IMG/VR virus record: IMGVR_UViG_3300048576_000525
Coordinates: 1 to 36,978 of that record
Direction: 5' to 3' (one strand)
Length of the DNA: 36,978 nucleotides
Origin: a virus
Taxonomy: Duplodnaviria; Caudoviricetes
Of the stretch, positions 1 through 32,867 are shown in pieces (position 1 is the first letter of the stretch; each line of letters opens with the position of its first letter). The translations under genes and the position numbers were made by a program. The notes beneath the pieces were generated by a model that made no database searches, was not told the origin of the DNA, and saw only the letters and a list, made by a program, of their open reading frames with translations.

Positions 1-525
1 GTCCCGCAGCGCGGCGTAGGCTGCGAGGTAGGTGGAGTGCACGGCCAGCGGCTCGCTCGAAATCGACGGGTACTCCGCCTGGATCGCCTGCCACTCCGCG
101 ACCCAGCGCGGCTTCTCGGCGATGCTGAGCACACTGTCCGCCGCCACGTCCACCAGGACCACGACCTCGGGGTAGCACACGCCCGCCTGGCGCACCCGGA
201 AGACGTAGCTCACGGGGCTCTGCGGACTCTCTAGCGTCCAGTCGAGCGGCCCGGCGGTGACCCCCACGGACGTCCAGGTGGGGGCTGCGGGACGGTCCCC
301 GCGATACGACGTCCACTCCAGGGTCCAGATCCCGGGGGGCAGGCCCTCCGGGGAGATCGTGGTAACGCGGATCAGGCTGCGGGGCACCACCTCCCAGGCG
401 GCCTGGATCATGGGCGTGATCCCCTCCGGGAGCGGATAGGGGATCGACGTGCGGGGCATGGCCCGCTTGCTGGTCTCGCACACGAGACGCAGCCCGGTCT
501 TCGTCCACTGCAGGCGAGTGCTCAT
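1..525 (-). CDS. Tail fibre / minor tail protein, N-terminal part (runs off the window; not in the ORF track)
   Basis: ATG at 525 overlaps the upstream TGA (TGATG); open for 175 codons to the edge (MSTRLQWTKTG...); contains DSVLSIAEKPRWVAEWQAIQAEY, like the D-x-x-L-S/T-x-x-EK...W-x-x-I-x-x-EY motif of phage tail proteins. Confidence 0.7.
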   Translation of the reverse strand, partial: MSTRLQWTKTGLRLVCETSKRAMPRTSIPYPLPEGITPMIQAAWEVVPRSLIRVTTISPEGLPPGIWTLEWTSYRGDRPAAPTWTSVGVTAGPLDWTLESPQSPVSYVFRVRQAGVCYPEVVVLVDVAADSVLSIAEKPRWVAEWQAIQAEYPSISSEPLAVHSTYLAAYAALRD

Positions 526-13327: not shown

Positions 13328-14118
13328 CACCACCTCCAGCCCGCGCCCAAGGCGGTCCTGTCTCCGACCTGCACCACCTGGAGATCTACCCTGCGGTAGC
13401 TCCAGCCCACGTACCCGCCCACGTAGGACCGGCCCTGCCAGTCCCGCGCTCCCAGTAGCCCCGCACGCCAGGGGCGCAGCGGCCCCCGGTCACGCGCCAA
13501 AGCCTCCGCGGCGTCAGCTCGCCTCTCCTGGGCCGTGGCACGCTCATCAGCCGCACCAAGGGCCGTGGTCAGGTGAGCCACCTGGAGGAGGCGGGCATCT
13601 GATATGCCCGCCTGAGCCCGGGCCAGGGCTGTGGCGGTGTCCAGTCTTTCGACCAGAGGCCCCACGCGCTGAGCCTCGCGGCCCCACTGGATGGCGGTGA
13701 GAGTGTCGGGAAGGGTCAGACCAGCAGCGAGGGGCGATCCCAGCACCACAGGATGGAGCCCCATGCCCACCAACTCGGATAGAGCGGCGGGTGCGGCAGT
13801 GCCAGGGTCAACGGGACGGGGGCCTGGGTCACGGGGCAGCGCGTCCAGGCGAGCCTGGAGAGCGTCCCGCTCGCGTTCCCGCTGCGCAGCCATTGCCCCG
13901 GCGGCACGCGCCTCTGCCTTGGCCTCGGCCTCACGCTGCTCTGCATCCTGGGCCCTCCGAGTTTCTGCGGCCAGGGCCGCTTGGTGCTCTGCCTCTTGGC
14001 GCTCCGCCGCGCATCTCCAGCCGCACAGCCCCAGCGCCAGGGCCGAGACGGCGACGGCGGCCAGGATCAGGCGGCGGGTGTTGATCGCACCCGAGGGGAG
14101 CCGCGGCAGGAGGTTCAT
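13327..14118 (-). CDS. Candidate spanin (N-terminal TM, coiled coil, C-terminal beta strands)
   Basis: RRLILAAVAVSALALGL, long Ala/Glu/Arg coil, C-term YVGGYVGWSY...ALGAGWRW; ATG 14118 coupled to the upstream stop. Confidence 0.5.
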   Translation of the reverse strand: MNLLPRLPSGAINTRRLILAAVAVSALALGLCGWRCAAERQEAEHQAALAAETRRAQDAEQREAEAKAEARAAGAMAAQRERERDALQARLDALPRDPGPRPVDPGTAAPAALSELVGMGLHPVVLGSPLAAGLTLPDTLTAIQWGREAQRVGPLVERLDTATALARAQAGISDARLLQVAHLTTALGAADERATAQERRADAAEALARDRGPLRPWRAGLLGARDWQGRSYVGGYVGWSYRRVDLQVVQVGDRTALGAGWRW

Positions 14119-14285
14119 CGGAAGACCACCACGAGGATGAGGGCCGCCAGGGACCCCGCGGCACCCAAGAGGCACGCCAGGAACAGGCACCCGTTGGCCA
14201 AGCTGTCAGGCCCTGCCGCCCTGTCGAGCCTCATGGCCGCCCACAGGAACAGGCAGAAGAGCGCGACCCTGATCCAGGCCATCAT
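14115..14285 (-). CDS. Small two-TM membrane protein (holin/antiholin candidate)
   Basis: 56 aa MMAWIRVALFCLFLWAA...CLFLACLLGAAGSLAALILVVVFR; coupled at both ends. Confidence 0.55.
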   Translation of the reverse strand: MMAWIRVALFCLFLWAAMRLDRAAGPDSLANGCLFLACLLGAAGSLAALILVVVFR

Positions 14286-14368
14286 TCCGCCGCCTCCAGC
14301 GTCTCCAGGTCTTCGTCCATGTGGACGTGGAGCTGTCCGCACTTGGCGCAGCGCATCACGATCCTCAT
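14282..14368 (-). CDS. 28-aa peptide with CxxC..HxH
   Basis: MRIVMRCAKCGQLHVHMDEDLETLEAAE; ATGA overlaps at both ends fill the gap exactly. Confidence 0.5.
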   Translation of the reverse strand: MRIVMRCAKCGQLHVHMDEDLETLEAAE

Positions 14369-14646
14369 GACCGCTCCCCGGTGGAGGGAATGCTCGTGGA
14401 GCTCACACCGTCCGCCGCAGGGCTCGGGACAGGTGCGCCAGGGTTCGGGGATTTGGAGCACCGTACCTCCGTCAGCTTGGACACGCCGTAGTTGCCGAGG
14501 GCCACGCCCAGCCAGAGGCCGACGTGCGCAAGGTCCGCGCCGTTGAACTCGCGCCAGACGGCCACCACCAGGGCCACAGCAGCACAGACGCGGCCCCAGG
14601 AGAGCTGCCCGCGCCAGTCCTGGAGGATCGTGCGGAGCTTAGCCAT
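14365..14646 (-). CDS. Holin-like membrane protein
   Basis: LQDWRGQLSWGRV plus two hydrophobic segments, directly after the putative endolysin. Confidence 0.6.
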   Translation of the reverse strand: MAKLRTILQDWRGQLSWGRVCAAVALVVAVWREFNGADLAHVGLWLGVALGNYGVSKLTEVRCSKSPNPGAPVPSPAADGVSSTSIPSTGERS

Positions 14647-21830: not shown

Positions 21831-22192
21831 GGTTTCATCTCCCGGGCGCGTGCGTGGTGTTCCTCGCAGCGCTCAGAGCAGACGCCACACCAGCGCTGGC
21901 CCCGGATGGCCTCCCGGCACCCGCAGACGATGCAGATCCCGAGGGCCCTCCAGGCCGGGCGGCGGCGGGCGAGGTTGGCTTTGGATTTCCTGGCGGCCAC
22001 GGCCGCGCAGGCTGCACAGCGGCAGCCCGGCGCGCCGTTGCGCCCCGGCTTGGCAGGCTCGCGCCCGCACTGGACGCAGAGCCCAGCGGCCCGCAGCCCG
22101 GCGCGCCGTTGCGCCTGGTAGCCGCGGTTGTAGGAGCGGCGGTGGGAGGCCCTCCCGGGCGCGTGGTCAGCAGGCATGGGGGGCGGGCTCAC
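21827..22192 (-). CDS. Cys-rich protein with two zinc-ribbon repeats
   Basis: GLCVQCG...CAAC and GICIVCG...CGVC; GTGA-coupled. Confidence 0.65.
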   Translation of the reverse strand: MSPPPMPADHAPGRASHRRSYNRGYQAQRRAGLRAAGLCVQCGREPAKPGRNGAPGCRCAACAAVAARKSKANLARRRPAWRALGICIVCGCREAIRGQRWCGVCSERCEEHHARAREMKP

Positions 22193-22491: not shown

Positions 22492-22569
22492 GGCTCACCT
22501 CCAGCTCTCTAGCGTGTCTTTCCGTCTCATTACCGATTTTCCAGATAGACATTGGTTGGTCCTGTGTGT

Positions 22570-22631
22570 GTTGCGCTGAGAACTACGTTTGGTTGCGCTG
22601 ATTTGTTAGGTCGCCTAATTGAAAGTTAGGC
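22570..22631 (+). other. attI-like integron recombination site
   Basis: L box GCCTAAT (22613-19), 5-nt spacer, R box G/TTAGGC (22625-31); upstream direct repeats GTTGCGCTGA (22570, 22592); resembles attI1 GTCGCCCTAAAACAAAG/TTRRRY. Confidence 0.65.
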
Positions 22632-22874
22632 GCCCAGCGCCAGCCTTGTTCTCTCTTTCAGGTTTTCCAACCATTCCGTGCCCGCTGCATCCCCAGCCTG
22701 AACATCAGCCGCGAATACCTGCCAATCCGCCAGGATCTTTTTCAGCCGCTTGCACTCATTCACTTTCGCTTCATGGCAGCGCCTTGCATCAACAAGGTTT
22801 CGTTCAAGCATTAGCTCCAGCCTAACCGTTGCATCAACCCGGACGGTGCCTTCGCTGGTCGGTTCATTCGTCAT
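22626..22874 (-). CDS. Cassette 1 hypothetical protein (82 aa), antisense to attC
   Basis: AAAGGA RBS and ATG inside the attC1 loop; TAA lies in the attI R box. Confidence 0.65.
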   Translation of the reverse strand: MTNEPTSEGTVRVDATVRLELMLERNLVDARRCHEAKVNECKRLKKILADWQVFAADVQAGDAAGTEWLENLKERTRLALGA

Positions 22875-22919
22875 TCTGGTTCCTTTCCCCGGCACCGCCG
22901 GTTATGCCAATCGTTGGGC
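22820..22919 (+). other. attC site 1
   Basis: GCCTAAC-CGTTG-CATCAACC...GGTTATG-CCAATC-GTTGGGC, inner stem CGGTGCC/GGCACCG. Confidence 0.9.
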
Positions 22920-22933
22920 GACACAGATCTACC

Positions 22934-23101
22934 TCAATCCACGTATTCAACGGTGACTTTCCAGTGGTCCGTCTTGCCATCTGGCCGACCCGTTTCAACG
23001 GGTATCTCACACTTCGACGCGCCCATGCGGTCAAGGTGCTGCACCAGCGCAAGGGCTGGAGCATCGGCAGTCTTCAGTTCGTCTTCAAGCTCTTTGCACA
23101 T
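22934..23101 (-). CDS. Cassette 2 hypothetical protein (55 aa; not in the ORF track)
   Basis: GGAGG RBS; MCKELEDELKTADAPALALVQHLDRMGASKCEIPVETGRPDGKTDHWKVTVEYVD. Confidence 0.65.
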   Translation of the reverse strand: MCKELEDELKTADAPALALVQHLDRMGASKCEIPVETGRPDGKTDHWKVTVEYVD

Positions 23102-23139
23102 CGTTTCCTCCGGGGGCGGCTGTTTATGGAGGGCCAGCC

Positions 23140-23207
23140 GCCCAACCCATCGTTCAACCGGACGTTCGGGCTAGCGCCCGCCCGCCGGTTAACTCCATAC
23201 GTTAGGC
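23140..23207 (+). other. attC site 2
   Basis: GCCCAAC-CCATC-GTTCAACC...GGTTAAC-TCCATAC-GTTAGGC, canonical layout with the extra base in L''. Confidence 0.92.
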
Positions 23208-23513
23208 CTGTTCAGCATTCGGAAAATTGGGGTTCGGGATGGTTTCATCTTCGATGTTCACGGCCTGGATCATCGGTATCCCATCGTCAACCCAAGTGAA
23301 GGTATCCAGTGCATATCCCGTCTCGCGTTGCACCTTGCGGAACTCGAACAAACAGCAGACAAACTCCTGAATACAAGCGGAAAGCCGATCATCCGGCACA
23401 TTGGCAAAGTCAGCGATTGAAACAATGTGATATTCGGCAGGGCCTAACCCGTCGCTCAACCTTGACGCTGCCTCTTCCGGCAACCCCCCGGAATTTCCGG
23501 ATACTTCAACCAT
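23202..23513 (-). CDS. Cassette 3 hypothetical protein (103 aa), antisense to attC
   Basis: AAAGGAG RBS and ATG inside the attC3 loop; TAA in the R' box of attC2. Confidence 0.7.
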   Translation of the reverse strand: MVEVSGNSGGLPEEAASRLSDGLGPAEYHIVSIADFANVPDDRLSACIQEFVCCLFEFRKVQRETGYALDTFTWVDDGIPMIQAVNIEDETIPNPNFPNAEQA

Positions 23514-23570
23514 TTCATCTCCTTTCATCGTTTCGCTGCGGCAACGCCGCTTAACTCCGAGGCGTTAGGC
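23442..23570 (+). other. attC site 3 (slightly degenerate L')
   Basis: GCCTAAC-CCGTC-GCTCAACC...GCTTAAC-TCCGAGGC-GTTAGGC, inner stem CGCTGCC/GGCAACG. Confidence 0.8.
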
Positions 23571-23774
23571 GCCCTCTTCTTCCCACCCGCAGTCCCAGGA
23601 GAAGCGGTCATGGGTTCCGTCCTGGTAGGGGTTTGTGTTCTTCGGGTGGCCATATTCCCTCGCCCTCGCCCCAGCTAGCGCCGGCGGAAGGAGCACGAGT
23701 TCCTTCCCACAGGAGGTGCACCTGAAGTCGGGGCTCATCTCGTCGTGGTGGCAGCGTCGTGCGTCAGCAGGCAT
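23565..23774 (-). CDS. Small protein with an Rmf/CrpP-like motif
   Basis: GAGGAGG RBS; NPY....DRFSWDCGW motif and CTSC; its TAA is in the last GTTAGGC core. Confidence 0.6.
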   Translation of the reverse strand: MPADARRCHHDEMSPDFRCTSCGKELVLLPPALAGARAREYGHPKNTNPYQDGTHDRFSWDCGWEEEGA

Positions 23775-25227
23775 GGGGGACGTCCTCCTCAGAACCGCTC
23801 GGACAGCACGCGCCATGCGAGCGCAGCGCACTGTGGGACTTGGCCGTTGCCGAGGGCCTTGAGGCGTCCAACACGGCGAGGGACGCCGCTCGCAACGCGC
23901 GGAAGGTCTGCGGGTTCAGCGGCCCAAGGTCCGTCCAGCCACGGGGCCAGCCCATCAGCCACTCCACCCATTCCGGGTTGAGGGGGCCGTTCAGTTCCGC
24001 AGGGGTGACCATCGTGCGGAGTTTGGCCCGCGCACCGCTGCCGCCCCACTTGCAGAGGGCCGCTCCCCCCGTGTCCGTCACGGCTGTCGGTGTGGGCCAC
24101 AGGGCCTTGGAGGCCATCGTCTGAAGGCTGGGGCGCGTCCTCCCGGTCCTCCCGGCAGAGCCGCCCTGGTTCGTCCCGTAGCTGGTCGCCGTTGGCGTGG
24201 GCCAGAATCCAGATCCGCTTTCGGATGTGCGGAGCACCGGCATCGTCCGCGCCCAGCACGCCCCATTCCGCAGCGAACCCCAGCGCGGCCAGGTCCCCGA
24301 GAACGGTACCGAGTCCCCGAGAAGTGAGCAGTGGGGAGTTCTCCACGAAGACGTAGCGGGGTCGAACCTCGCGAACGATCCGTGCAAACTCCCGCCAGAG
24401 GCCGGAGCGGGCACCGTCGATTCCTTCGCCTCGACCAGCGGCGCTGATGTCCTGGCAGGGGAAGCCTCCGGCGATGAGATCAACGTGGCCTCGCCAGGGG
24501 TTGCCGTCGAAGGTCCGAACGTCGTCCCACACGGGGAACCAGGGGAGGATGCCGTCCCGCTGCCGCTGGAGGAGGACAGACCGAGGGTATTCCTCCAGTT
24601 CAACGGCGCAGACTGGCACATGGCCGAGAAGGAGTCCGCCGAGGATTCCGCCCCCGGCTCCGGCGAAGAGGTGCAGTTCACGAAGTGCCACATGCACCGC
24701 CCCTCCCGCACCGCCGCGAGCACCTGGCAGGCACATGGATCCTCCAGCGGAATGAGGCCCAACGTCTTGCAGGCAGCGGCGTAGACATTCCAGTCGTCGA
24801 CCGTGTAGCACCCGGTCAAGGTGTAGCGGTCGATGATGCGCTTCCGTGCGGCCCTGGCCTCGTCCAGCTCCGCCCGTGCCTCGTTCCGCTCCGCGGTGAG
24901 CGTGCCGATGGTCTCGGCCTGGGCGCGGATGGTCTCCCGGGCCTCCACGAGCAGCGCCTCCGCCTGGGGGCCCAGGGTGATGCCCTTGGGCTTCGCCAGC
25001 GGCTTGCGCGTCTGGATTTCGTAGCCGACGGGGAGCCAGCGATCGGAACCGGCTGGCACCACGACCTTGAGCTCGGCCACGGCCGGGTTCTCGTTGAAAA
25101 GACGGATGGCCTGCTCCACGTTGGCGGCCATGACCTCGGCCACCAGCTGGCGGCGGCCGTGGTGGCTCAGCCTGGGGGGGCCGACCAGCACGTAGCGGCG
25201 CATAGTGGGGGTGGCAGCGGCGCTCAT
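23764..25227 (-). CDS. Overlapping-frame methyltransferase beta polypeptide (own ATG at 24693), in frame with an upstream 178-codon hypothetical ORF
   Basis: WPTP repeats and LNPEWVEWLMGWPRGWT (motif IX-like) in the alternative frame; ATG 25227 is ATGA-coupled. Confidence 0.7.
   Translation of the reverse strand: MSAAATPTMRRYVLVGPPRLSHHGRRQLVAEVMAANVEQAIRLFNENPAVAELKVVVPAGSDRWLPVGYEIQTRKPLAKPKGITLGPQAEALLVEARETIRAQAETIGTLTAERNEARAELDEARAARKRIIDRYTLTGCYTVDDWNVYAAACKTLGLIPLEDPCACQVLAAVREGRCMWHFVNCTSSPEPGAESSADSFSAMCQSAPLNWRNTLGLSSSSGSGTASSPGSPCGTTFGPSTATPGEATLISSPEASPARTSAPLVEAKESTVPAPASGGSLHGSFARFDPATSSWRTPHCSLLGDSVPFSGTWPRWGSLRNGACWARTMPVLRTSESGSGFWPTPTATSYGTNQGGSAGRTGRTRPSLQTMASKALWPTPTAVTDTGGAALCKWGGSGARAKLRTMVTPAELNGPLNPEWVEWLMGWPRGWTDLGPLNPQTFRALRAASLAVLDASRPSATAKSHSALRSHGACCPSGSEEDVPHAC
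23789..24691 (-). CDS. C5 cytosine DNA methyltransferase, main (alpha) polypeptide
   Basis: LFAGAGG (I), GGFPCQDIS (IV), ENSP (VI), PHIRKRIWI (VIII), RLKALGNGQVP (X); motif IX not seen in this frame. Confidence 0.92.
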   Translation of the reverse strand: MALRELHLFAGAGGGILGGLLLGHVPVCAVELEEYPRSVLLQRQRDGILPWFPVWDDVRTFDGNPWRGHVDLIAGGFPCQDISAAGRGEGIDGARSGLWREFARIVREVRPRYVFVENSPLLTSRGLGTVLGDLAALGFAAEWGVLGADDAGAPHIRKRIWILAHANGDQLRDEPGRLCREDREDAPQPSDDGLQGPVAHTDSRDGHGGSGPLQVGRQRCAGQTPHDGHPCGTERPPQPGMGGVADGLAPWLDGPWAAEPADLPRVASGVPRRVGRLKALGNGQVPQCAALAWRVLSERF

Positions 25228-30288: not shown

Positions 30289-30512
30289 AGGCCCGGCTCC
30301 CCGGCGCCCGTGGCCAGCCAGGGGGCGGGGACGCCCAGGGCCAGGGCCAAGCGGCCCAGGTTGCGCGCCCGGGGGGAACGGTTGCTCGACTCCCACCGGG
30401 AGACTGCCCCCCTGGTTGCGGGGACCCTGGACGCGAGGTCCTCCTGGGTCCACCCGCGCATAACCCTTGCGTATTCAACGCGCCCGCCGAAAGTCGAGGT
30501 GTCGAACTGCAT
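30285..30512 (-). CDS. Cro-like XRE HTH regulator
   Basis: FGGRVEYAR..RGWTQEDLA...RGAVSRWE...P....LA.ALGV...WL..G. Confidence 0.88.
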   Translation of the reverse strand: MQFDTSTFGGRVEYARVMRGWTQEDLASRVPATRGAVSRWESSNRSPRARNLGRLALALGVPAPWLATGAGEPGL

Positions 30513-31084: not shown

Positions 31085-32302
31085 ATGGCACGCGCGTTTG
31101 GCCTCCGGAAGGTTGGCCGCTACTGGCACGCCGATTTCTGGGTGGGCGCGAAGCACATCCACCGCTCCACCCGCATGACGTCCTTCCCGGACGCTGAGGA
31201 CGTCGCGCGGCAGTGGCACACGGAGGAGCAGCGCAAGGCGCAGGGGTTGCCCGTGGACCAGGGCCTCACCGTGCGCGAGCTGTGGGCGCGCTGGTGGGCT
31301 GGCACGGAGTCGTACCTCTCGGAGAGCCACCGCAACCGGGTTGCGCAGGACTGGGACCTCTACGTGCTCCCGGCCTGGGGGGATCGTCCCGCGAAGGGCA
31401 TCCGCACCGCGGACGCGGAGGAGCTCCGCCGGGACTTCCTGGCCTCTCCCAGCCTGCGCAACGCCCACTACGCGGAGAAGATCACGGCACGCTGCAAGCG
31501 GGAGGAGAGGGACGTACCGCCCCCTGCCCCGCGGTCGATCGCCAGCGGGAACAAGCTGCTGTTGCACGCCCACCTCGTCTGGACCTGGGCGGTCAAGCGC
31601 GCGGAGATCCTGGCCCGCGTGCCCTGGAGCGTGCATATCGATGACGCCCAGGAGAAGCCGAAGGACACCTTGAGCGAGAGCCAGATCCGGGACTTCCTGG
31701 CGCAGATCGACCGGACGGCACGGAACCCGCACGTGCACGTTGCCGTGCGCGCGATGCTCTACCTCGCGCTGCGCGAGAAAGAGGCCCTGGTGATGCGCTG
31801 GGAGTGGTTCAGCCCGGACCTCGCGACGTTCCAACACGGGGAGCGCAAGGCGAAGGACGCCCCGCGGTATCCGGTCCCCCTGGACCTCCGGGAGCGCCTG
31901 CAGGCCCTGTGCCCTGCCCCTCCTGGGAAGGCCTGGGAGCGCCCGGCCTCGGGGCTCGTGCTCCCGCGGATGGTGGACGGCGAAGAGGCCCGGCACTGGG
32001 GGCAGTTCACGACGAAGGCCATCGCACGGGCCGCGAAGACCCTGAAGCTGAAGCTCACCCCGCACTCCCTGCGGCACAGCTGGGCCACGATGACCGCCCG
32101 TAAAACGGGAAATGCCCATCTCGTGAAAGATGGGCTGGGCCACAAGGCCCTCAACACCGCGACGAAGTACGTGAAGCTCAGCACCCGCGACCTGGCGGAG
32201 GCCCAGGCCAAGGTGTTCGGAGACCTGGCGGAAAAACCCTCACAGCCCGCGCACAAGTTAATTCACCACACCCTCGCAAGGATGCGCAAGAAAACGGGTT
32301 AG
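31085..32302 (+). CDS. int: Tyrosine recombinase, phage integrase
   Basis: ALREKEAL (R), HSLRHSWAT, LGHKALNTATKY; AGGAGG RBS; abuts att. Confidence 0.95.
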   Translation: MARAFGLRKVGRYWHADFWVGAKHIHRSTRMTSFPDAEDVARQWHTEEQRKAQGLPVDQGLTVRELWARWWAGTESYLSESHRNRVAQDWDLYVLPAWGDRPAKGIRTADAEELRRDFLASPSLRNAHYAEKITARCKREERDVPPPAPRSIASGNKLLLHAHLVWTWAVKRAEILARVPWSVHIDDAQEKPKDTLSESQIRDFLAQIDRTARNPHVHVAVRAMLYLALREKEALVMRWEWFSPDLATFQHGERKAKDAPRYPVPLDLRERLQALCPAPPGKAWERPASGLVLPRMVDGEEARHWGQFTTKAIARAAKTLKLKLTPHSLRHSWATMTARKTGNAHLVKDGLGHKALNTATKYVKLSTRDLAEAQAKVFGDLAEKPSQPAHKLIHHTLARMRKKTG

Positions 32303-32314
32303 GCCGCGGGAGCG

Positions 32315-32364
32315 AAGGTCTCATAATCCTTAGGTCCCCGGTTCGAATCCGGGCCCAGCCACCA
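32315..32364 (+). pseudogene. 3' half of tRNA-CAT (probably elongator Met) = prophage att core
   Basis: CTCATAA loop, TCCTT, AGGTC, CCCGG-TTCGAAT-CCGGG, CCCAGCC-A-CCA; no D arm or 5' acceptor upstream. Confidence 0.9.
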
Positions 32365-32376
32365 GCAGCCATCTTG

Positions 32377-32401
32377 AACGGAGCCCCGCGCTCCGTTTTT
32401 T
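32377..32401 (+). terminator. Rho-independent terminator (repeat unit 1)
   Basis: AACGGAGC-CCCGC-GCTCCGTT followed by a T run. Confidence 0.8.
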
Positions 32402-32567
32402 GTGCCTCCCTGGAGGAACGCGGGCCCGGATCCGGACCGGGGAGAGCCAGCGGCGGCCCGGCAAGCCCGCAGCGAGCAGGGCCCCGGTGGGGCCCGGCGC
32501 AGCGCCCGCGGGCGGGGCCAGCCGCTGGCGGTTCGAATCCGCCCCCAGCCACCAGCAGCCATCTTGT

Positions 32568-32592
32568 ACGGAGCCCCGCGCTCCGTTTTTTT
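32568..32592 (+). terminator. Rho-independent terminator (repeat unit 2)
   Basis: ACGGAGC-CCCGC-GCTCCGT followed by a T run. Confidence 0.8.
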
Positions 32593-32867
32593 GTGCCTCC
32601 CTGAAGGAACGCGGCCCGGATCCGGACCGGGGAGAGCCAGCGGCGGCCCGGCAAGCCCGCAGCGAGCAGGGCCCCGGTGGGGCCCGGCGCAGCGCCCGCG
32701 GGCGGGGCCAGCCGCTGGCGGTTCGAATCCACCCCCAGCCACCAGCAGCCGAGCCTCGCGGCTTCCGATTCCTGCATTCCCACCCACCCTGGCAGCCGCA
32801 CTGGTGGTGCCTTGGCCGTGGAATAAGGCATGCATCCCCAGCCCCCATGCCCGATAGAATCGAGTCC

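Follow-up and report, generated by a model that had tools for sequence, protein, structure and literature searches.

Integrons are regarded as bacterial devices that align genes behind the promoter Pc, and recent work describes their cassettes as anti-phage stores. Clusters of attC sites lacking an intI gene (CALINs) have already been published in phages. In Qi 2023 (PMC9892861), phage CALINs comprise at least two attC sites with intI absent, the prophage CALIN of Shewanella M16-3 begins with an attI site, and five of the six phage attC sites tested recombined with attI1 through IntI1 in E. coli. The CALINs of Cury 2016 (PMC4889954) are, in the available portion of that text, bacterial, and their expression is unknown. 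Integron parts together with intI are carried by Vibrio Va_90-11-286_p16, Shewanella M16-3 and phage P1 L-II (Qi 2023), and by virus Rctr41k.

The locus described here lies in the IMG/VR virus record IMGVR_UViG_3300048576_000525 (Duplodnaviria; Caudoviricetes), and "the window" denotes the whole stretch analysed, positions 1 to 36,978 of that record. Three attC sites stand behind an attI-like site, and the block resembles the Qi 2023 phage CALINs in its number of attC sites and absence of intI, the Shewanella M16-3 CALIN in its opening attI, and the CALIN definition given in the accessible part of PMC4889954. In the TJE1 CALIN, attC sites and genes share a strand; those of the window lie antisense, with starts placed in the attC loop and stops in the core. 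This contrast with PMC9892861 covers TJE1, which stands beside 16 other CALINs in that paper. Genes and attC sites also share a strand in Rctr41k, unlike in the window. Compared with the Cury 2016 CALINs as described in the part of the paper available, the window retains an attI-like site and has its genes placed for a phage operon. The text of PMC9892861 describes no unrelated phages that share an attI core yet differ in the array behind it, as the window and a second prophage, G001, do. With class 1 integrons the window shares the spacing of the simple site, two upstream direct repeats at similar distances and, judged against the accessible sections of Nivina 2016 (PMC5027507), bottom-strand attC sites with an extrahelical G and a purine-rich loop; it differs in having neither intI nor Pc, and its genes face attI, whereas the "correct orientation" of those sections points genes away from Pc. 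What distinguishes the locus from TJE1 is its antisense genes. Of antisense arrays led by attI, a search of full-text literature (subscription papers, bioRxiv supplements and the Dryad annotation of Qi 2023 lying outside its scope) returned no description in phages. A closer match is the prophage G010 (see below), which combines intI with antisense cassettes.

The window is a whole virus record with prophage hallmarks (terminase, major capsid and tape-measure families). Its plus strand carries a repressor-like HTH gene and a phage integrase, and leftward from the cro-like HTH gene the phage genes are on the minus strand; the integron block is flanked by a C5 DNA methyltransferase gene (23789-24811) and by small genes preceding a primase-like gene. 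The tRNA-like sequence listed in Table 1 was the sole Rfam match in the window, with none inside the integron block, and ARAGORN detected no tRNA in the window. Partial copies of the tRNA-like sequence at 32529-32611 (94%) and 32719-32750, within the region 32297-32750, suggest that integration at one tRNA has recurred; beyond this region come type I restriction genes. A 17-bp gene-boundary sequence is repeated at 22166-22182 and 23763-23779, at the starts of two early genes whose products both begin MPAD; G001 and the read contigs diverge at this repeat, which is likely an exchange linker. The nearest true relative (G002; terminase 72%, primase 70%) lacks an array and shows no synteny at the block; it was rejected as an empty-site allele, the genes upstream of its primase being unrelated.

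Table 1. Features of the integron block and related loci (window positions unless a record is named).
Feature	Position	Strand	Remarks
Platform block	22505..22631	+	left edge at RBS of next phage gene; right edge at attI core
Micro-ORF, 22 codons	22484..22552	-	inside platform; overlaps start of next phage gene (22189-22491)
attI-like site	22570..22631	+	10-bp direct repeats at 22570 and 22592; L box 22613-22619; 5-nt spacer; core G/TTAGGC
Cassette 1	22626..22913 (288 bp)	+	contigs start at 22625 in 4/4 runs
Cassette 1 ORF, 82 aa	22626..22874	-	RBS and ATG within attC1 loop; stop TAA is the core
attC1	22820..22919 (100 nt)	+	spacer 6; 40.1 bits; L-box pairs 7/7
Cassette 2	22914..23201 (288 bp)	+	bounded by contig ends and one joint
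Cassette 2 ORF, 55 aa	22934-23101	-	own RBS outside attC2; stop 20 nt before core
attC2	23140..23207 (68 nt)	+	spacer 7; 49.6 bits
Cassette 3	23202..23564 (363 bp)	+	initial 324 nt identical to both G001 copies
Cassette 3 ORF, 103 aa	23202-23513	-	RBS and ATG within attC3 loop; stop TAA is the core
attC3	23442..23570 (129 nt)	+	spacer 8; 25.1 bits; hybrid
Terminal unit	23565..23784	-	69-aa ORF 23565-23774; stop in core; no attC of its own
cro-like HTH gene	30300-30512	-	
tRNA-like sequence	32297-32361		Rfam; overlaps integrase stop; partial repeats behind
Complete integron in G010	G010:C1:25563-31389 (L087, L092, L032)		all genes co-oriented
XerC-like tyrosine recombinase, 344 aa	L003:864-1898 (G001)		beside phage integrase; about 2.1 kb left of attI; below IntI cut-off

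The three attC sites of the preliminary description were recovered, at the positions and with the layout given there, by a pattern scan and by a covariance model. The pattern scan of the 37 kb returned these three places only, and shuffled windows (n=8) gave 0-1 matches each. The covariance model, for which other phages supplied 44 short attC sites (IMG/VR loci 41, TJE1 3) and the window none, gave exactly three matches at E of at most 1, all on the bottom strand and at the same places; with the filters off, only the 68-nt site was recovered whole. In the model alignment, compensatory changes were found in 12 of the 13 pairs of the inner helix, and 136 cells were changed on both sides against 40 in shuffles, a comparison that is partly circular because sites had been preselected for L-box pairing. 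An extrahelical G is present on the bottom strand of each of the three sites. attC1 and attC2 have R'' and R' cores, paired L boxes, an unpaired central spacer and a bottom-strand hairpin; in attC3 the same elements come with one mismatch, a G-G pair of the L box, and with a fold predicted to be poor. The canonical hairpin lies 1.0, 1.4 and 6.4 kcal/mol above the lowest-energy fold for attC1, attC2 and attC3, respectively, and attC3 is accordingly predicted to be a weak hybrid site that folds poorly. Its right arm diverges from that of the G001 copy at 23526, immediately past the RBS; this switch, being away from G/TT, indicates that homologous exchange also reshapes arrays. Pairing of R'' with the cassette's own core is perfect in all three cassettes, as had been claimed, cassette 2 opening with TTGGGC and carrying GCCCAAC as its R''. 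A search with attC1 returned matches of only 24-27 nt, which were dismissed as chance, and the integron block as a whole had no match in GenBank phages or PLSDB plasmids.

The attI1-like simple site reported earlier, GCCTAAT-TGAAA-GTTAGGC, was found at 22613-22631, with the crossover G at 22625. Two direct repeats also lie upstream of attI1; we take them to be DR1 and DR2. Measured on plasmid NZ_MT077883.1, attI1 has the same spacing from TAA to core and from L box to core as the window site, and its repeats lie 32 and 51 nt before the core, against 33 and 55 nt in the window. Judged by sequence alone, the site has the composition of an attI, that is, an L box, 5 nt and a GTTRRRY core, with cassettes taken at G/TT. 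No promoter-like site resembling Pc was found near it, and the genes face the opposite way. The lower GC content of the block also held (0.548 over 22500-23571; flanking DNA 0.726 and 0.685).

The platform to the left of the first cassette matches G001 at 74% over 124 bp (window 22510-22631), the final 23 bp being identical. In wastewater contigs of three runs the match begins at 22505-22509 and other genes adjoin it; its left part occurs in these contigs in several variants, one of which is the G001 form. These comparisons suggest that the platform block may have been carried between phages. The micro-ORF inside it likely couples translation (on attI micro-ORFs, see the accessible portion of PMC8876359). 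It stands where intI starts in a complete integron such as that of G010, and was considered as an intI remnant; the position fits, but tblastn gave no similarity to IntI and the candidate was rejected.

The ORFs of the three cassettes all occupy the minus strand, running against attC polarity and in the direction of the phage early operon; none shows the classical arrangement, in which the gene lies on the top strand of attC and terminates at R''. The cassette 1 and cassette 3 proteins owe their first 20-25 residues to the attC arm, and their reading frames close at the core TTA read backwards. This orientation was absent from the preliminary description and changes how the cassettes would be expressed. 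No cargo protein matched a Pfam or PHROG family above cut-off, and ESM Atlas gave no usable match: the cassette 1 ORF has five homologues whose heads are varied or absent, and its C-terminal part of 61 aa had no Pfam or PHROG match; the cassette 2 ORF belongs to no family in Pfam, PHROG or ESM Atlas, and a pattern scan for cassette 2 returned no match; and the terminal gene gave a weak RMF-like match of 20.4 bits, under the cut-off of 27.9. The cargo comprises small accessory proteins of the phage that belong to no known family; our guess is a role in host takeover or counter-defence. The terminal unit differs from the unit closing the G001 array by 1 mismatch in 220 nt, and homologues of its gene occur with an attC-type head (P0038) and without one (P0037). 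It may be a former cassette whose attC was lost, or a resident anchor gene able to acquire one. The clean junction at the stop codon of this gene, from which an empty allele had been argued, is not diagnostic of one, since a stop within the core is common among antisense cassettes (64 of 135 families) and this gene too has a form with an attC head.

Related arrays of the same attC family were compared. A 20-base seed from the left arm of attC3 identified 65 stretches in viral contigs, of which 7 overlapping or G001 stretches were dropped, leaving 58; at least two attC sites were present in 46 of the 58 contigs and at least four in 31, in a set that was seeded from attC3 and includes near-duplicates. 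Polarity and orientation were scored on 139 cassettes from 48 loci. Of the 94 informative cassettes, 75 have an R'' that matches their own left core more closely than the core that follows (13 match it less closely and 6 are tied; p=9e-12), which is the standard polarity. ORFs of at least 45 aa with an RBS were found on the bottom strand only in 89 of the 139 cassettes, on the top strand only in 2, on both in 2 and on neither in 46. Own-core polarity and these strand counts together argue that the sites are not attC sites read in the wrong direction. With the RBS filter removed, the longest ORF is on the bottom strand in 86 and on the top strand in 49 of 135 families, a count affected by shadow frames in GC-rich DNA. 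An ORF ends at the core TAA in the 64 families mentioned above, compared with 12% of shuffles. Among long attC loops, 90 of 94 are more than 50% purine. Where an array had room on its left (n=30), a leading core was present in 24, and 14 of these 24 had a box like that of the simple site against a background of 2.8%, although the motif was written after the sites had been seen and the counts include the window and G001.

Alleles carrying different cassettes at the same core, as would be expected of the dock proposed in the preliminary description, were found in G001 and in contigs of three runs, with breaks at cores and with a duplicate in first position. G001 is unrelated in its core genes, with no tblastn hits for six core proteins and with terminase, portal and capsid families different from those of the window phage. 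It nevertheless has the same 23-bp attI core, behind which come six attC cassettes and then the terminal gene known from the window. In G001, cassette 3 recurs as cassette 1 with 360/360 identity; the duplicate could be an assembly artefact. According to the available text of PMC8024014, a first-position duplicate is the commonest IntI1 product in evolved populations, attributed to "copy and paste" at attI. Copies of cassette 3 were also present in the metagenome contigs L095 (90%) and L096 (79%). In all four arrays (window, G001, L095, L096) the cassette begins at an identical point, and its neighbours differ: in L096 it is first behind another attI-like simple site, and in L095 it lies between other cassettes. 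Bounded by G/TT, present in different arrays (four in the case of cassette 3) and paired by R'' to their own cores, the cassettes have these attributes of integron gene cassettes. Eleven of 15 metagenome loci of the cassette 3 family (those other than L095-L098) matched weakly, at 28-50% identity and with no flanking attC, and were not used. The L095 array opens with half an attC site (right arm only) that adjoins the RBS of a phage gene and resembles the right arm of the window attC3 at 18/19 nt.

Contig evidence was drawn from public wastewater runs (n=4). Contigs break at 22625 for cassette 1 in all four runs, at 23563 for the terminal unit in 3/4 and at 23200-23201 for cassette 3 in 2/4, and in run X1 one contig joins a different attC end to 22911 (cassette 2). 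Three different sequences follow 22632, in 3/4 runs, and one of the contigs has zero mismatches to the window attI. No run gave read cover left of 22471, and two runs gave none on cassette 2; neither gap was counted as evidence. Across the contigs of the four runs there was no joint spanning the array, as an empty allele would give, and no circle joint of an excised cassette, contigs being prone to drop rare forms. From RNA run X15 nothing was placed on attI. Scans for the attI core were made in viral contigs, one pattern returning two stretches (G001 real; L004 a chance match inside a coding gene, without an array) and another four (G001 real; L007-L009 chance), in genomes (the sole match, L010, judged chance) and in metagenomes (0 matches); scans of viral contigs for the terminal gene returned G001 only.

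Further likenesses between the two phages were noted outside the array. The C5 DNA methyltransferase sequence at window 23781-24695 is 97% identical to G001:41150-42064, which lies in another early operon and is inverted relative to the G001 array, a different methyltransferase standing beside that array. A 132-bp gene end is common to both phages (window 1-132, G001:67812-67943, 98%) at the ends of late genes, and they also share blocks at window 14000-14624. Elsewhere in G001, L016:15011-15096 is a single attC site with L boxes like those of attC1, a classical sense gene in front of it and a low-GC island around it.

As the preliminary description had stated, no intI lies left of the attI-like site. 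In the window as a whole, tblastn with two IntI proteins found neither intI nor a remnant of it and matched only the phage integrase, weakly. In a comparison with the IntI family, this integrase scored 22 bits against the cut-off of 265; the block thus has the clustered attC sites of a CALIN with no intI nearby, and lacks the intI of a complete integron. An IntI search of 50 of the 58 contigs returned one protein above the cut-off (G010, 426.8 bits against 265) and three weak tyrosine-recombinase matches. IntI was absent from all 9 records that were at least 90% complete among the 50 searched; since the other 41 were less than 90% complete, its absence from them is weak evidence. In G010 the order is tRNA, integrase, xis-like gene, full-length intI, attI-like site (38 nt from the start of intI) and eight attC sites whose antisense genes are phage-like, and its IntI is 53% identical to IntI1. 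G001 has the gene order of G010 minus intI. An IntI donor need not, then, be the host's, a prophage with a full IntI existing within the cassette family itself. In virus Rctr41k (L094, KX853513.1; 4680-9434), a gene annotated xerD shows 41% identity to G010 IntI across 97% of its length. Behind it lie at least five attC-like sites whose genes are sense, and this intI is co-oriented with the cassettes.

We consider it likely that the locus is a live integrase-less phage integron platform of antisense type, to which IntI is supplied in trans. Of the preliminary description's gene-shuffling system, the phage's own landing site, the gain and reordering of cassettes at G/TT and the lack of an integrase of its own stand, and the argument from the clean junction falls. 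A dock shared by unrelated phages and followed by different rows of cassettes indicates that these phages likely borrow an integron enzyme, by which small early genes would be acquired and rearranged. IntI from elsewhere in the cell, encoded by a host integron or by a co-resident prophage of G010 type, would insert, copy and remove cassettes at G/TT. As in classical integrons, it would fold and cut the attC bottom strand, and the folded strand would recombine with the double-stranded attI-like site (PMC9892861 and the accessible sections of PMC5027507), placing each new cassette next to attI. Given the antisense genes, no Pc promoter would be required. Judging from gene order, a phage early promoter would transcribe the array from its far end, on the cro side, with the oldest cassette read first; a minus-strand promoter for the array was not found. 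Each gene would be translated from its own RBS, located within the loop of the hairpin where the attC site is long. The newest cassette would be read last, and position should matter less than in classical integrons because every gene brings its own RBS. The platform may descend from a complete phage integron (an operon of cassettes, attI, intI, xis and int, as in G010) by loss of intI, and may move between unrelated phages by homologous exchange at gene-boundary sequences.

The strongest competitor, though an unlikely one, is that the block is a frozen relic, captured whole by homologous recombination from a once complete phage or host integron, with IntI inactive here and the arrays differing because they were built before capture or were reshuffled by RecA or a phage recombinase between attC arms. 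The edges of the platform, which fall at gene-boundary sequences away from att cores, would suit such a capture, as would the absence of IntI from the window, the half attC that opens the L095 array and the poorly folding hybrid attC3 with its switch at the RBS; for most CALINs, moreover, activity is untested in the part of PMC4889954 available. A relic does not readily explain the exact first-position duplicate in G001, the several first cassettes behind one core in independent runs, the breaks that fall on the core's single G or the intact state of attC1 and attC2, nor why an attI-like simple site opens so many more arrays (14/24) than the background, even with a motif written after the sites had been seen.

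Service of the sites by a small Xer-like phage tyrosine recombinase rather than by a classical IntI is very improbable. The XerC-like gene of G001 makes the idea worth stating, but within the attC family the only recombinase directly beside attI is the full-length IntI of G010, the others inspected resemble ordinary phage integrases beside xis or far from attI, only 4/50 contigs gave any match, and the sites have canonical IntI geometry. Least credible of all is that the hairpins have no part in DNA recombination, being either chance repeats or elements that regulate small phage genes at the RNA level. The attC bottom strand indeed has the sense of the mRNA and, for two of the three cassettes, contains the RBS, so that a role at the RNA level is also possible; this account is opposed by the invariant AAC/GTT, the extrahelical G, the compensatory changes (partly circular, as noted), own-core polarity and the presence of intI beside such an array in G010.

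Alongside exchange at G/TT, a second process is apparent from comparison of the sequences, in which attC3 has switched arms and attC-encoded heads and gene bodies get mixed. The body of cassette 3 carries three different attC heads or none (P0004, P0005, P0006, P0007); the headless gene (L097) is an ordinary phage gene whose neighbours lack attC. Two heads of the cassette 3 family recur on other gene bodies, cassette 3's own head in P0008 and the second in G001 cassette 5. De novo formation of cassettes is described as largely unknown in the accessible part of PMC5371416, a source on cassette genesis. With one gene found plain or under three heads, and the terminal gene with or without a head, we tentatively entertain, as a possibility short of an expectation, that phages are a workshop for new cassettes, in which a long attC would be a portable start module (RBS, ATG and the opening 20-25 codons, all in the hairpin) grafted onto ordinary early genes of phages. 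The grafts would make these genes into antisense cassettes that IntI can move, and a community-wide pool of them would be traded among unrelated phages through the shared attI dock and a few IntI-encoding prophages.

Genes seen both plain and as cassettes with interchangeable heads are concrete substrates for tests of cassette formation, and the locus is a good test case, since two matched arrays share a core and G010 supplies a candidate for the donor integrase. The same recombination grammar that bacteria use is apparently run by phages for their own early genes, reversed and mostly without paying for an integrase. If this is true, it would provide a site-specific route to phage mosaicism, the cassette pools of phages and bacteria would be linked, and induction of IntI would reshape prophages.
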